This document shows positions 598 through 54,890 of a DNA stretch of 64,000 bases, piece after piece (position 1 is the stretch's first letter; each line of letters starts with the position of its first letter). The position numbers were made by a program, and so were the translations under genes. The notes under the pieces are model-generated. The model was not told the origin of the DNA and ran no database searches. It was given only the letters and a program-made list of their open reading frames with translations. Origin of the DNA: Escherichia phage kaset; sequence record PV245935.1. One strand, given 5' to 3'.

Positions 598-1449
598 ATG
601 GCTTTTAAAGCTTCGAAAAAACGTGAGCGCCGCTCACCCGATAGAATCGGGCGCGGCAGTCCGATAATCCCATCAAACGCTATTGCGATGGCCTACCGTC
701 GTGAGATGAAAGGTCTTTGCTATGCGATGATTGATGACTATCAGGAAGGCATTTCAGAATGGCTTGACAAGAAGCAGGTGCAGAAGTTTTTTGCGCAAGA
801 CTCTGCTGATTCGACATTCCAGACCCTTATGAAACGGCTGCAGCTGAAATGGGCAAAGGCGTTTGCACGTGTTGGGTCGAAGATTGCTGCTGATTTTGTC
901 AAATCGGTCGAAAAGGGTGCCACTTCTGCTACATTCGCCAGCCTTAAGTCCGCAGGCATAGAAGCGCCAAAGGCCACGTACAACAAATTCGTTGAGAACA
1001 CTCTTAGAACAAGCGAGACATTTAACACGACTCTAGTGACCAAGGTCGGCGAGGATATTCACAACAGAGTGTACGAAGCAGTAATGCTTTCACTGACTTC
1101 GCCCGACCCAGCCAAACAAGGCACGTCAGGCATTCAGGCGGCGCTGCGAAACGTCAAACACTTTTCTGCAAAGAGAGTCGATTTAATCGCTAAAGATCAA
1201 ACAAGTAAATTGTATTGCGTTCTAAGCGATGAAAGAATGCGCCAGAATGGAGTTGAAGAATTTGAGTGGGCGCACTCAGGAGCAGGAAAGGAGCCGCGAA
1301 TCTCTCATGAACACGTCGACGGAATGAGATTCAAACTTGATGACAAGCGTCTATGGGAAGTTGGCGGAGAATTGAAGTTCAAAAAGGGCGACATCGGTCC
1401 TCCTGGATGGGCGATACACTGCAAGTGCAGGAAAATACCAATCATTTGA
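598..1449 (+). CDS. Head morphogenesis protein, Mu F / SPP1 gp7-like
   Basis: ATG at 598 overlaps upstream stop (TGATATG); C-terminal R-x-S-H-x-H-x-DG motif (PRISHEHVDGMRF) typical of MuF-like minor head proteins. Confidence 0.7.
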   Translation: MAFKASKKRERRSPDRIGRGSPIIPSNAIAMAYRREMKGLCYAMIDDYQEGISEWLDKKQVQKFFAQDSADSTFQTLMKRLQLKWAKAFARVGSKIAADFVKSVEKGATSATFASLKSAGIEAPKATYNKFVENTLRTSETFNTTLVTKVGEDIHNRVYEAVMLSLTSPDPAKQGTSGIQAALRNVKHFSAKRVDLIAKDQTSKLYCVLSDERMRQNGVEEFEWAHSGAGKEPRISHEHVDGMRFKLDDKRLWEVGGELKFKKGDIGPPGWAIHCKCRKIPII

Positions 1450-4997: not shown

Positions 4998-6137
4998 ATG
5001 ACTCGCATTAGCCAAACACACTCTCGCCTCCCAGCGAGCAAGGTGCGCCCTTTTGATATGCAATCCGTTACCGACGCGGCTGTTTCCCAGCTTGCTCGTA
5101 TCGGTATTGTGTTTGATTCCGCGATTGTGCGTGATCAGATTGAGCACTTAAACCGTGCAGGCGCTTTCCGCGTAGGTGACGCCGCGTTTACTGCACCGCA
5201 GACCACGCCATCAATCCCGACCCCGCTGCAGTTCCTGCAACAGTGGCTGCCTGGCTTCGTCAAAATCATGACCGCTGCTCGTAAAATTGACGAGCTGGTT
5301 GGTATTGACACCGTTGGCCAGTGGGAAGATGCAGAAATCGTTCAGGGCATTGTTGAACCAGCTGGCACCGCAGTTGAATATGGTGATTTCACCGCCATTC
5401 CTCTGGCAAGCTGGAACGTAAACTTTGAACGCCGTTCCATCGTTCGCGGTGAAATGGGCATGGCAGTCGGCATGCTGGAAGAAGGTCGCGCGTCTGCGAT
5501 GCGTCTGAACTCCGCAGAAACCAAGCGCCAGCAGGCTGCTGTATCTCTGGAAATCATGCGTAACGCAATCGGCTTCTATGGTTGGTACAACGGGAACAAC
5601 CGCACGTTCGGCTTCCTGAATGATCCAAACCTGCCAGCGGCGATGACTTCAAACACCACTTCCGGCTGGGCTACTGCGACCTTCCAACAGGTGACTGCAG
5701 ACATCCGTTTGATGGTTCGTCAAATTCGTGTAAACTCTCAGGACCAGATTGATCCAGAGAAGGTTGACATGACTCTGGCGCTGCCGACCAACTCTATTGA
5801 TTGGCTGTCAAACACCACCGACTTCGGTATTTCTGTACGTGACTGGATCACCCAGACTTATCCGAAGATGAAGATCAAATCTGCACCGGAACTCAACGGC
5901 GCACTTGGCAGTGACCCGACTTTCCTGAACGTGGCATATCTGTACGCTGATCACATCGATTCCTCAATTGATGGCTCAAGCGATGATGGTTCCGTATTCA
6001 GTCAGCTGGTCCAGACTAAGTTTATGACTCTGGGCGTTGAGAAACGTGCTAAGAGCTACGTTGAAGACTACGCAAACGCAACAGCAGGCGTTCTGCTCAA
6101 GCGTCCTTTCGCAGTCGTCCGTATGACTGGTATCTAA
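4998..6137 (+). CDS. Major capsid protein candidate
   Basis: 379 aa ORF following the scaffold-like gene; position and size typical of a major capsid protein; stem-loop follows the stop. Confidence 0.55.
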
Positions 6138-27553: not shown

Positions 27554-27610
27554 GATGCACCAGATAAATAAAAGGCCGCCAATCGGCAGCCTTGTTGATT
27601 TGATTGTCGA

Positions 27611-28471
27611 TTAAAACTCTTCTGCGTCGGTCGGAGTTTCATTGACAGGACCAGCGGCACCACTTGCTTCTTCCTGCTTGCTGCGGTCAATGTTAACGTT
27701 GCCGCCAACTACGTCGTTGTGGAACGCTTTGGCGACTTCGTACAGGCCTTTGTCCTGCACCAGACCTTCCAGCTCAAACTTCAGGACGGACCAGGTGTTG
27801 CCGTCTTTGGACTGAGACGCAGTACCCATGCGAACGATGTTCATGAAGGTCGGCGGCATTTTCAGGCCCTGCGGAGTCTGAACTTTCTTCTGCTGCAGCG
27901 CGGTCATCAGCATGCGAGACGGCTTGATCATGGAAGAAGTCAGAGACAGCATTGCGCTACCAAATTCACCAGTTTCTTCGTTCAACAGGATCACAAAGTG
28001 GTTACGTGTATCTGCGTAGTAAGGTGATTTCTTCTCGTGCACCTTGCCGTTTTCGTCTGGAACAAACACCTTACCGTTGATCTCAACAGCGCGGCCTGCC
28101 GCGACTTCTGCATCAACGTGCTCTTTGGTAAATTCACCTTTAAAGCCTTTATCGTCGGACTCGCGACCGCCCCAAAGGATGAAGGTGCGTTTGAATGCAC
28201 AAGGGATGATCTGCACGCCTTTCTTGCCGTCATACAATTCACCAGTAACGGTATTGTACAACATACCAGCTTTTGCGCCAGGAACGTGTTTTGGATCATC
28301 TTCGTCGACCATCGGAGACATCTTTTGCAGTACGACGATAAAAGGAATGGCATAAGCGTCGGCATCGGCACCTTCAAAACCAGCGCCAAAATCGGTCATA
28401 TCGACAAAATCAGCCATAGCGGACATCTGGGTGTTTTTCACTGCAACTTCGGTAGTTTCTTTCTTAGACAT
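27611..28471 (-). CDS. Putative ssDNA-binding protein (T7 gp2.5-like by C-terminal acidic tail)
   Basis: Acidic C-terminus ending ...TDAEEF; location within replication module; similarity judged by eye. Confidence 0.4.
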   Translation of the reverse strand: MSKKETTEVAVKNTQMSAMADFVDMTDFGAGFEGADADAYAIPFIVVLQKMSPMVDEDDPKHVPGAKAGMLYNTVTGELYDGKKGVQIIPCAFKRTFILWGGRESDDKGFKGEFTKEHVDAEVAAGRAVEINGKVFVPDENGKVHEKKSPYYADTRNHFVILLNEETGEFGSAMLSLTSSMIKPSRMLMTALQQKKVQTPQGLKMPPTFMNIVRMGTASQSKDGNTWSVLKFELEGLVQDKGLYEVAKAFHNDVVGGNVNIDRSKQEEASGAAGPVNETPTDAEEF

Positions 28472-28530
28472 TTGATGTTTTCCTATAGTATCAAGTTTCG
28501 TGGCAACCTGATTTCAAGATAAAGGTTAAA

Positions 28531-29088
28531 TTACTTTTTGCTTTTAGGCAAGGTTATTTTAGCTTCTTTATACTCAAAGACGCTAATATCTTCACTGACT
28601 GGATTACCCGCTTCCAGCTGTTCTTTTACGAATGACTTCAGTGTAGCAGAATGAACGCCTTGTTTCAACGTGGCTTCAATACCGTCTTCACGCAGCGCGG
28701 CAACAATCTCTTGCGCTTGCTCGATTTCTTCGCGACCGAACTCAGCCGTGACGCTGGACTTGATCAAGCCGCCGTAACCGTTGTTGACAAGCCAATCGAA
28801 TACTTTCAATTCATTTTCTTTCTTAATTGAAGCATTGACTTTTGACTCGACCTTGATTTTGGTCTTGTCTTCAAGCTTGATTTCGGACACGCCAAGCTCA
28901 TCCATAACGCCAGGAAGCAGAACAGTTTTGATTTCACTGATGCGCTGCTTTTGCATATCAGCTTCATCTTCAAGCTCTGTCAAAGCTTCTTGGCGTTCTG
29001 CCAATTCCGATACTAAGCGCGCAAGGCGCTCTTGGATGCTCTCAGGAGCGACCTGCGGCAAATCATCTTCCCAATTAATATTGCTCAT
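28531..29088 (-). CDS. Hypothetical protein
   Basis: ATG with RBS AAGAAGGT; start codon lies in first copy of a 52-bp tandem repeat. Confidence 0.5.
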   Translation of the reverse strand: MSNINWEDDLPQVAPESIQERLARLVSELAERQEALTELEDEADMQKQRISEIKTVLLPGVMDELGVSEIKLEDKTKIKVESKVNASIKKENELKVFDWLVNNGYGGLIKSSVTAEFGREEIEQAQEIVAALREDGIEATLKQGVHSATLKSFVKEQLEAGNPVSEDISVFEYKEAKITLPKSKK

Positions 29089-29184
29089 ATTTTACCTTCT
29101 TGCATTAGCCCTTCAACACGGGTCATTTGATATTGCTCATATTTTACCTTCTTGCATTAGCCCTTCAACACGGGTCATTTGATA
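29081..29184. repeat. Perfect 52-bp tandem duplication (2 copies) spanning a gene junction
   Basis: TTGCTCATATTTTACCTTCTTGCATTAGCCCTTCAACACGGGTCATTTGATA at 29081-29132 and 29133-29184. Confidence 0.85.
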
Positions 29185-29400
29185 ACGTTCAGGTTTCCAA
29201 GCCGCCAAAGCCTTCTCAGCGCCTTTTAAAGTTTTATATGCCTTGATGCCAGGCATAATGACGGTATTCACCCCAGCACCGTTGCCATAATCAAACTCTT
29301 TTACAACGCGGAACATGCCGTCAATTTCTTTGACCAAAAGACGTTTGAACGCGATTGCGCCAGTAGCTTCATTTTTGTAACGTTCAAGGATGCGTACCAT
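29137..29400 (-). CDS. Hypothetical protein
   Basis: 87 aa ORF; C-terminal codons lie within second copy of the 52-bp repeat. Confidence 0.5.
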   Translation of the reverse strand: MVRILERYKNEATGAIAFKRLLVKEIDGMFRVVKEFDYGNGAGVNTVIMPGIKAYKTLKGAEKALAAWKPERYQMTRVEGLMQEGKI

Positions 29401-29474
29401 TTTGTATTCTTCTATTTCGTTTCGATGAAGTAATTATGACTCATCTTCCGTGACAAGTCAAATTATTTTTGATA

Positions 29475-30998
29475 TTAATTCATCTTTTTGCCGTCGAGGA
29501 TGTGATCAGCAAGCATAGACTTCATACTTAGTGAACGCTGAATTTCTTCATCGATGGTGTCAACACCAATAAAATCAACATACAACACGCTTGATTTGGT
29601 GCCGATGCGGTGATTTCGGTCTTCGGATTGCTTGCGCAACTCGTTGTCGTAGTTGCAAGAATAATAAATTGCCAAGTCAGCGGCTGTAAGCGTGATGCCG
29701 ATGCCTGCCGCAGCAGCGTGGCAGACCAATACTTGTGTTCCACCATTCTCGACTGTGTTTTTCTGGAAGTCATCAATCAAGAACTCACGCTGCTCTTTTG
29801 ACGTTTCACCGTTGTATACACCCGTGACCACGCCTTCAGACTCAAGCCAATCCTTAATCTGGTTCATCTCTTCCTTAAAGATGGCCCAAACAATGAACTT
29901 GCGCTCTGGGTCGTCTTCCAGCACCCCTTCCACATAATCCTTAAAGGCCGTGAATCGTGGGTTGTCTTCCATGTAGACCATCTCATCATACACCTTAACA
30001 AAACCGGATGTCACCTGCTTCATCTTAGTGCGCGACGCGATCATCTCAAACTTGACGTTTTCTTCTTCGCCCTTGTATTCCATCAAATAGTTGTACTCAT
30101 TCTTGAGTTCATCGTAAACATCGCGTTGTTTAGGCGACAACTCGAAGTCAATAAACTTGTACACCTTCTCTGGAAGGTCAGGCAAGTATTCTGCTTTTGT
30201 TGCACGAAAATAGTGCGGTTCCATCAGCCGGATAAGCTTGTCAAGGTTCTTGTACATCGGTCGGCCAAACTGGTCTTTGCGCGGCACTTGCGGAATCCCA
30301 TAGCCATTGCCGCCGATTTTCTTGAGGATGGCTTGCATCTCTGGGTCGTGCGCTTCAAGCAGCACAGTGAATTCAGAGTTGAAGGCGCGGAAAGATTTGG
30401 TGCCGAGCAATCCTGCTTCAAGGAAGTGATATTGCATGTAAATATCAGCAGGCGAGCGCGGCAACGGCGTGCCAGAAAGGATTCGACGGGCCTTTGCCAG
30501 CCGTCCCAATTCCACAACCTTGATGGAGCGTTTGGCTGTGTTATTCTTGATGCGCGTTGATTCGTCGATGATCATCAGGCAGCGGTACTTCTTCAAGACC
30601 GACTCGATGTGTTGATAACCGACTGGTGTGTTGACAGTATCGATGTTGAATGAGAAGATGCGCGCAGGCACTTCGCCTTCGGGGTAGTGATCAGCAAACA
30701 TCTTCTCCCAAAGCGCCTTGCCCTTTTTAGTTTTCATCTTATCATTGCCGCGCCAGTAGTGCCCAATCCACTTGATGGAAAGGTGTTCTGGTGCTTCACG
30801 ACGAATCCAGTTTGAGTGGACGCCGTTTGGAGCGATGACGACCATGGCATCGAACGCGCCAGCGGTGAAGTGCTTTTCAAACTCTGCCAAAGCGGTCCAA
30901 GTTTTACCAAGACCCTGTTCCATAAAATAGGCAAAGTATTTTCTGCGGCCTGCTTTATCAAGCGCCAATAGTTGGTGGCGCATTCCTTGTGTTTTCAT
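29475..30998 (-). CDS. SNF2-family helicase
   Basis: Motif I GLGKT, motif II DESTRIKN (DExx box), LSGTPL motif. Confidence 0.75.
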   Translation of the reverse strand: MKTQGMRHQLLALDKAGRRKYFAYFMEQGLGKTWTALAEFEKHFTAGAFDAMVVIAPNGVHSNWIRREAPEHLSIKWIGHYWRGNDKMKTKKGKALWEKMFADHYPEGEVPARIFSFNIDTVNTPVGYQHIESVLKKYRCLMIIDESTRIKNNTAKRSIKVVELGRLAKARRILSGTPLPRSPADIYMQYHFLEAGLLGTKSFRAFNSEFTVLLEAHDPEMQAILKKIGGNGYGIPQVPRKDQFGRPMYKNLDKLIRLMEPHYFRATKAEYLPDLPEKVYKFIDFELSPKQRDVYDELKNEYNYLMEYKGEEENVKFEMIASRTKMKQVTSGFVKVYDEMVYMEDNPRFTAFKDYVEGVLEDDPERKFIVWAIFKEEMNQIKDWLESEGVVTGVYNGETSKEQREFLIDDFQKNTVENGGTQVLVCHAAAAGIGITLTAADLAIYYSCNYDNELRKQSEDRNHRIGTKSSVLYVDFIGVDTIDEEIQRSLSMKSMLADHILDGKKMN

Positions 30999-35469: not shown

Positions 35470-35685
35470 TTATTGATTAATTACTGTGTTGTCTTCGTCC
35501 TGTTTCTTTTCAGGAGCGGGTGTGACAACTTCAAATTTAGGTTTGGGCAATTCACCTTTAGCACCTGGGACTTCAACGACAATCTTTTTGTCAGGCTCAA
35601 CAGGATTTGGAACTTCAAATTTGATCGTGTATCCTAATACAACAAGAAGCACTAAACCGATTACCGCTACCCAGGCTTTGTTCAT
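35470..35685 (-). CDS. Small membrane-anchored protein, hypothetical
   Basis: N-terminal TM segment AWVAVIGLVLLVVLG, Pro/Lys-rich tail. Confidence 0.5.
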   Translation of the reverse strand: MNKAWVAVIGLVLLVVLGYTIKFEVPNPVEPDKKIVVEVPGAKGELPKPKFEVVTPAPEKKQDEDNTVINQ

Positions 35686-37310: not shown

Positions 37311-38152
37311 CCTTTTGATACTCCATCTTTAGCGACTGGATTGTTGGTGATTGGCATCGCACTCCAAAACTGGATGCGCAACTCTTCTTGCTGTGCCGTG
37401 GTATCCATCCAATCACGATACCAAGGGCAATGTGCTTTACCGTGACGGGGAAATGCGCACTTACCCATACCGATGCATTGCGGCTGTAGTAAAGGATTAG
37501 CCCAAGGGTGCACCTTGAGGACTTCCGCAACCATTGCACGAAATACTTCTTGATACTCGCCTTGAGTGCGCGTGCACAAGCGGTTTGACGCCATCTGCTG
37601 CAGCGTGCGCAAGTTGAACTTTGCCATGATATGCGTTTGCATATTAGAAGGCAACACGGCACGTGCATCCTGAATCTCTGCGCCAGCCGCGCGAAGTTCT
37701 TGGTATAGGGCGTCAATGGTTGCCATTGCATCATCCCACTTCTCTGCCAGCACACTTCTTTTTTCAGAGTCCCAGTATCCTTCTTCATCCTGGTCGAAAA
37801 AGTCTTTTTTACCAAGATCATCTAAACTATCAAAATCACCATCCCTTTCAAATGCCTTCGGACGAATTGCATCAAACGCAGACGACTCCTGAGCGCGGCT
37901 AGTGCGTTCTTGATATGCGCCTGTGCGTGTGCGCACCATCTGATGGGTCATGTTCTTTGAAACATCAGTGATGTCAAAGATATAGTCCACAAAGTCAAAG
38001 GGCGACTTGATTGTATCAAGCATGTAGCGCCAGTGCTCTTGCTTCTCTGATTCTGTCATCTCAGAGACAGGCTTGCCAGTCATGCGCGTGTTCTTTGTTT
38101 CCAGCAAAAGGTCAAGTGCATCTTGGGTGTATCGAATTAATTCAACTTTCAT
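37307..38152 (-). CDS. ThyX-like flavin-dependent thymidylate synthase homolog (divergent)
   Basis: ARAVLPSNMQTHIMAKFNLRTLQQM resembles ThyX ARxVLPxN...NxRSL block; RHR-like motif present as RTRTGAYQERTSR. Confidence 0.55.
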   Translation of the reverse strand: MKVELIRYTQDALDLLLETKNTRMTGKPVSEMTESEKQEHWRYMLDTIKSPFDFVDYIFDITDVSKNMTHQMVRTRTGAYQERTSRAQESSAFDAIRPKAFERDGDFDSLDDLGKKDFFDQDEEGYWDSEKRSVLAEKWDDAMATIDALYQELRAAGAEIQDARAVLPSNMQTHIMAKFNLRTLQQMASNRLCTRTQGEYQEVFRAMVAEVLKVHPWANPLLQPQCIGMGKCAFPRHGKAHCPWYRDWMDTTAQQEELRIQFWSAMPITNNPVAKDGVSKG

Positions 38153-54600: not shown

Positions 54601-54890
54601 GTATAGAATTTAAGCGTATAATGACGTAAGATTTGGACCTATCCGTAGTTCACTCCACACACTTCTATGGTGCGCCGCGACTGGGTTCAATGGTACATCT
54701 TACGGATGATACGGATGATACGCGTCGCCGCTATACTTTATACAACTTTGAAAAAAACAATTAACTCCATTTTGAATTAATTTAAATTAATTTTTTTCTA
54801 CATCCTCATACTTATACTAAAATTATATTTATACGTATTATCCGTAAGATATAAATAAAAACAAAGACTTGCGGCAATACGGATGATACG
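54601..54890. repeat. Iteron-like module B, homologous to 2540-2835
   Basis: Shared GCGTATAATGACGTA; inverted TACGGATGA x2 at 54689-54706; CGCTATACTTTATA; AT-rich core 54721-54850; further copies at 54826-54834 and 54864-54887. Confidence 0.7.

Follow-up and report, generated by a model that had tools for sequence, protein, structure and literature searches.

The stretch of DNA that we analyzed, hereafter the window, comprises 64,000 nucleotides of the Escherichia phage kaset genome (PV245935.1). As a Wifcevirus, the phage is a virulent myophage of E. coli, and the window is approximately 96-98% identical to phages WFH, ECML-117, and Mansfield. All genes of the region considered here are on the minus strand. 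A SNF2-type helicase gene (29475-30998) is followed directly, after a gap of 74 bp, by a gene for an 87-residue protein of family phrog_27467 (29137..29400, gene A), a gene for a 185-residue DUF7307 / Pam3 gp33-like protein (28531..29088, gene B; PF23984, E=2e-37), and a gene for a 286-residue Pam3_Gp34-like protein (27611..28471; PF23977, E=4e-86). The protein encoded by gene A has no Pfam match, even at E<=10. For all three proteins, matches are solely to DUF or PHROG families of unknown function, there are no relatives in the PDB, and the Pam3 literature provides no functional lead.

A promoter-like site, TTGACT-17-CATAAT (29433..29461, minus strand), lies in the gap between the helicase gene and gene A and probably drives transcription of gene A, gene B, and the gp34-like gene. 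A terminator-like hairpin with a T-run (27572..27593, minus strand) lies 3' of the gp34-like gene, and a terminator is annotated at the equivalent place in Mansfield. Given the promoter-like site before A and the hairpin after the gp34-like gene, the three genes look like one operon. In the window as a whole, 23 of the 95 same-strand gene junctions are overlaps of 4 nt or 1 nt.

The signature feature of this locus is a perfect tandem array at the junction between genes A and B. Tandem Repeats Finder places it at 29078..29184, with adjacent head-to-tail copies, a period of 52, 2.1 copies, 100% matches, and a score of 214, and it is the sole perfect long-period array found in the window. By direct comparison, each base is identical to the one 52 positions further on (w[i]=w[i+52]) over a run of exactly 55 bases that starts at 29078 and cannot be extended leftward. 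An exact self-match of 55 bases cannot arise by chance in 64 kb. Copy 1 (29078-29129) adjoins gene B, copy 2 (29130-29181) contains the end of gene A, and the array closes at 29182-29184 with the 3-bp microhomology ATA, which occurs here for the third time. The plus-strand layout is ATA + 49 + ATA + 49 + ATA, the triplet reads TAT on the coding strand, and the copy-copy junction is GTCATTTGATATTGCTC. The initial annotation had described two identical adjacent 52-bp units at 29081..29184; both methods confirm the units, and the coordinates are a valid alternative register for the same pair. Neither the rest of the window nor 278 kb of related DNA contains a further perfect repeat with a period >=25.

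The gene junction lies within the duplicated segment, and each copy carries a different part of it. Translation of 29137-29184 on the minus strand gives YQMTRVEGLMQEGKI followed by a stop, so the upstream copy indeed encodes the final 15 codons of gene A together with its TGA, as originally proposed. The copy next to gene B was said to supply its ribosome-binding site and start codon, and this also agrees with the sequence and its translation. It contains the Shine-Dalgarno sequence GAAGG (29095..29099, minus strand), which lies 6 nt upstream of the ATG within an upstream reading frame and coincides with the site annotated in Mansfield, as well as the ATG and the first three codons plus two bases of gene B. 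Translation of 29059-29088 on the minus strand gives MSNINWEDDL, the start of the gene B protein. Both proteins are unchanged by the duplication, and so are the 52 nt upstream of gene B.

What has changed is the space between the two genes. In the window, the gene A stop (which ends at 29137) and the gene B ATG (which starts at 29088) are separated by 48 nt, and the stop-start overlap (4 nt) that is seen in relatives is absent. The spacer contains two short open reading frames, both on the minus strand. The first, MSNIK (29123..29140), begins at the duplicated ATG (29140), which overlaps the TGA of gene A as ATGA, and is served by the duplicate GAAGG at 29147-29151, again 6 nt upstream. This mini-ORF had been recognized in the initial annotation and is verified by translation, but a second one had been missed. 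The latter encodes MTRVEGLMQEGKI (29085..29126), which is identical to the C-terminal 13 residues of the gene A protein. Its ATG at 29126 overlaps the TGA of the first mini-ORF (29125-29123) as ATGA, and its own TGA (29087-29085) overlaps the gene B ATG at 29088 in the same way. The second link exists because 52 mod 3 = 1, such that the frame of B reads the 'CAA ATG ACC' of A as 'C AAA TGA CC'. The result is an unbroken chain from A through both mini-ORFs to B, made of three ATGA overlaps, in which the ATG of the second mini-ORF is not preceded by a Shine-Dalgarno sequence comparable to GAAGG, as judged by reading the sequence. The earlier view that the duplication decouples A from B thus holds in the physical sense, with the genes 48 nt apart; given the ATGA chain from A to B, functional decoupling is putative.

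Comparison with related phages, which had been suggested as a check, provides the ancestral state. A 25-kb query is approximately 96-97% identical to WFH, ECML-117, and others, and its distant matches are Pseudomonas phages of the genus Pbunavirus. Twenty-eight GenBank phage records match the junction region at 95-98% identity; all belong to the genus Wifcevirus, with E. coli or Shigella as hosts. Every one of these aligns to the junction region in two pieces, and 27 of the 28 are ~52 bp shorter than the query. Wherever the junction is uninterrupted in a GenBank relative (27 of 27), it is single-copy, and so it is in 21 of 21 contigs from Logan, ENA, NCBI, and IMG/VR. Exact-protein look-ups that started from gene B or from the helicase gave 20 contigs from Logan, ENA, and NCBI. 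All of these phages are single-copy and <=~98% identical, and in 20 of 20 the gene preceding B ends 4 nt after the B start; a look-up of the same kind for the 286-residue gp34-like protein gave no hit. In one contig, scaffold_120 of ENA ERZ28619966, the gene that ends at this position is the second piece of a split gene A. There, a 1-bp frameshift divides gene A into ORFs of 55 and 50 aa (5599-5863), so in this metagenome-derived Wifcevirus either the assembly contains an error or gene A is dispensable.

Between fixed anchors, the junction measures 92 bp in the 25 related loci that we read directly and 144 bp in the window, with the sequence otherwise identical or nearly so. The Mansfield annotation likewise gives the A and B coding sequences a 4-nt overlap. 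These data bear out the proposal that the junction was originally a single, ATGA-coupled one, and they show its sequence to be ...CGT TAT CAAATGACC...GAGCAA TAT TAATTGG.... In all single-copy relatives, the 49-bp core is flanked on each side by TAT (coding strand), with a spacing of 52 bp between the two triplets, which means that the microhomology existed before the duplication. The novel copy-copy junction is absent from viral contigs (searched with a 33-mer) and from metagenome and GTDB genome contigs (each searched with a 25-mer), and searches of complete E. coli genomes and plasmids with the junction region gave no match. The kaset genome itself is absent from the collections searched, which therefore offer no second assembly of it. 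Among the relatives examined, then, the 52-bp duplication is, by sequence comparison, private to the kaset genome.

Two minor observations also come from these comparisons. Near-complete Wifcevirus genomes are present as contigs in two NCBI assemblies, GCA_018093385.1 (a 68,615-bp contig) and GCA_010773595.1 (a 66,358-bp contig), which could reflect contamination or a carrier state, even though these phages are regarded as virulent. Moreover, the counterparts of window positions 35537-35678 and 37751-37859 are absent or shorter in WFH (OZ035737), which makes these segments small variable cassettes in an otherwise co-linear block of 96-97% identity.

We consider it probable that the array is a recent, strain-private duplication that arose in a Wifcevirus by microhomology-mediated slippage and is neutral or almost neutral. 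Replication with strand slippage or template switching between the two TAT triplets, 52 bp apart and flanking the A/B junction, would have copied the intervening segment. Since this segment spans the junction, gene A would have retained its C-terminal 15 codons and stop, and gene B its Shine-Dalgarno sequence and ATG. The sole change would be conversion of the ancestral 4-nt ATGA overlap to a 48-nt spacer. Its rise to the consensus is more likely due to a bottleneck, at plaque purification or transmission, than to selection. The array, its absence from every relative examined, the microhomology, the intact reading frames, and the mini-ORF chain are direct observations, whereas slippage as the mechanism, the effects on translation, and neutrality are inferred.

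Duplications by slipped-strand mispairing or template switching are classical among mutations in phage T4 rII and E. coli lacI, and microhomology is a hallmark of slippage. The kaset array shares with microhomology-mediated short tandem duplications its perfect head-to-tail copies, end-points at a pre-existing direct repeat, and restriction to one lineage. There is no difference in kind; the particular feature here is that the segment spans an overlapping stop and start and leaves both frames unbroken. The array thus fits an ordinary class of event, as a new instance of something known rather than as a new biological principle.

The main alternative is that the DNA itself is single-copy and that the second copy was introduced during assembly or finishing, as an untrimmed 52-bp terminal self-overlap of a circular contig or of adjoining contigs. 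We regard this as unlikely. Such an overlap, of length k-1 for k=53 or of any length if the assembler was long-read or overlap-based, would have become internal when the ends were joined or the genome was rotated. Untrimmed terminal overlaps that remain after rotation are a common finishing artefact in phage genome records, and they too give a perfect tandem duplicate, some tens of bases in length, that no other record shares. The 100% identity of the two copies does not discriminate between a recent event and an artefact, and the absence of the copy-copy junction from every relative examined and every public contig searched is also what an artefact would produce. In addition, the window is co-linear with the WFH record OZ035737 from 4056 to 68315 of 68319, so that it ends within 4 bp of the end of that record. 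This co-linearity suggests that the kaset record was re-oriented to a reference, a step in which terminal overlaps become internal.

However, several features of the array differ from those of an untrimmed overlap. Neither k nor k-1 is usually 52, and SPAdes and MEGAHIT do not usually give overlaps of this length. The 55-base self-match might suggest a SPAdes overlap at k=55, but concatenation would then have given a period of 55 instead of 52. The array also has three extra matching bases and a harmless position. To judge how often a random position would be harmless, we used a simple gene model with 96 ORFs and 90% coding density. Of random 52-bp segments in the genome, 16.8% are not wholly inside one coding sequence. 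Because a 52-bp duplication wholly inside a coding sequence shifts the frame, a real mutation that survived is expected within this minority, whereas a random contig end is not, and a random break point would be harmless only ~17% of the time. Flanking microhomology of >=3 bp accompanies 1.6% of the distinct possible 52-bp duplications and ~5.3% of random break positions, so a random break would show such an extra match only ~5% of the time. Under the random-break artefact, a harmless position and microhomology would occur jointly by chance in ~1% of cases. This combination is expected of a surviving slippage product and unexpected of a randomly placed artefact. Nor does the remaining window show signs of poor assembly: its differences from OZ035737 are substitutions and small, mostly compensated indels, with no systematic signature of sequencing error.

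In its ancestral form, the A/B junction is a classic -4 overlap, with the Shine-Dalgarno sequence inside the upstream gene, of the kind known to support ATGA termination-reinitiation (Huber et al., 2019, PMC6728339; Huber et al., 2023, PMC10666635). In kaset, by contrast, A and B are 48 nt apart, and the spacer holds two mini-ORFs in a three-step relay. When the spacing in E. coli was 38 nt, termination-reinitiation fell by 80-90% in two gene pairs and was abolished in a third (PMC10666635). Based on this 80-100% loss at 38 nt, direct coupling from A to B is probably lost at 48 nt. Removal of the Shine-Dalgarno sequence caused a substantial drop in reinitiation in four of five gene pairs (PMC6728339). 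The first and last links of the relay have a good Shine-Dalgarno sequence, but since reinitiation usually needs such a sequence and none precedes the ATG of the second mini-ORF, the relay is likely weak and leaky at best.

The start region of gene B itself is predicted to be unaffected. The mean unpaired probability of its Shine-Dalgarno sequence plus ATG is 0.57 with the duplication and 0.57 without it, and the predicted accessibility of the Shine-Dalgarno sequence is 0.72 versus 0.70; no change in RNA structure is predicted around the gene B start. Gene B would thus be translated mainly by fresh initiation at its own unchanged Shine-Dalgarno sequence, with a possible weaker contribution from ribosomes handed along from A to MSNIK to MTRVEGLMQEGKI to B. 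We know of no description of a three-step relay of ATGA-overlapped mini-ORFs.

Comparison with other phages shows that gene B tolerates different upstream contexts. In Escherichia virus TH32 (MT446405.1, an UNVERIFIED record), an extra 82-residue P-loop ORF lies exactly at the A/B junction, at 1175-1423 (minus strand) of the MT446405.1 locus, which is equivalent to ~29088/29137 in the window. This ORF has a Walker-A-like motif, GPRNSGKT, and is 41-42% identical to a 'nucleoside/nucleotide kinase' of Klebsiella phage KP8. It overlaps the stop of A as TAATG and extends 14 nt into B, which has a different ribosome-binding site. In Pseudomonas phage SN (Pbunavirus; locus 1783-1878), there is no gene between the helicase gene and the gene B homologue. 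In Xanthomonas phage XcP1 (locus 1669-2004), a Pam3_gp32-like gene (PF23992) precedes the gene B homologue with an ATGA overlap; no homology between this gene and gene A is detectable. Adjoining the SNF2 helicase, proteins like Pam3 gp32, gp33, and gp34 apparently make up a conserved module of unknown function.

Taken together, these contexts show that the slot upstream of B is variable and that uncoupling is survivable. The TH32 insert marks the A/B junction as a site of gene gain, and TH32 and SN show that gene B does not need gene A directly upstream. For these reasons we judge the slippage duplication to be neutral or nearly neutral. A caveat is that the A-B overlap is kept in every Wifcevirus examined except TH32; together with the ATGA overlap in XcP1, this conservation may indicate a role for coupling and a cost of the duplication.

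A further possibility is that the duplication is real and was selected because it alters how gene B and the gp34-like gene downstream of it are expressed, which we consider improbable. B could have been freed from stoichiometric coupling to A, or an upstream promoter-like copy could now give an mRNA with a 46-nt leader that carries the Shine-Dalgarno sequence of B. The candidate for the latter is a weak and speculative sigma-70-like site inside the repeated unit, TTGAAG-16-TAAAAT (29141..29168, minus strand; second copy 29089-29116). With a single copy, the -10 element ends 1 nt before the ATG of B, so that no B mRNA made from it could be translated; in the duplicated state, a translatable one could begin near 29134, from the upstream copy alone. 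The site matches at just 9 of 12 positions, however, and sites of this quality are common, with 10 found in 3.8 kb of AT-rich sequence versus 4.5 +/- 1.8 in shuffles. A better promoter is also already present ahead of gene A. Recombination would be expected to collapse a direct repeat of 52 bp, and its persistence as the consensus could indicate selection, although a purification bottleneck accounts for fixation unaided and the duplication has not recurred in the other Wifcevirus genomes and contigs examined.

Adaptive rewiring, in which B and the gp34-like gene are uncoupled from A through the cryptic promoter or through an ATGA relay that sets a new A:B ratio, is in our view also improbable. 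If true, it would represent a natural counterpart of engineered gene decompression, caught just after it occurred. In decompressed phiX174, as in kaset, shared sequence was duplicated so that each gene has complete signals (Wright et al., bioRxiv 10.1101/2020.06.10.143693). The kaset case differs in being natural and in affecting one junction with a 4-nt overlap, instead of being designed genome-wide. Removal of all overlaps from phiX174 disturbed protein levels and fitness, and fitness was lost (bioRxiv 10.1101/2020.06.10.143693).

Three other explanations can be rejected. The mini-ORFs are not a regulatory leader peptide or upstream ORF, as they occur in the kaset genome only and are by-products of the duplication; the repeat creates no attenuator or terminator that we could find, and 28400-29600 has no Rfam match at E<=1. 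A programmed frameshift that fuses A to B lacks a slippery heptamer, and a +1 slip on AAA-A would reach a stop after four codons. Finally, a mobile-element target-site duplication or footprint is ruled out by the length of 52 bp, which is far too long, and by the lack of an insert between the copies; the TH32 insertion at the same site, which has no flanking duplication, also counts against it.

A real slippage duplication at this junction would show that overlapping phage genes can be separated by a single slippage event with both genes undamaged. The intergenic spacer it creates would be the kind of slot that later holds extra genes, as TH32 does at the same junction. Kaset and its single-copy relatives would also constitute a natural pair for gauging the contribution of ATGA coupling in a fast-replicating E. 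coli phage. If the second copy is instead an artefact, the practical value of the finding is correction of the genome record.

Elsewhere in the window, a 9-bp motif, TACGGATGA / ATCATCCGT, recurs in both orientations at 2570-2850 and 54640-54760, around very AT-rich intergenic stretches. The two regions share a 66-nt segment (2609-2674 versus 54697-54762) that is 85% identical. The pattern looks like operator or iteron arrays, as in a regulatory or origin-like region.
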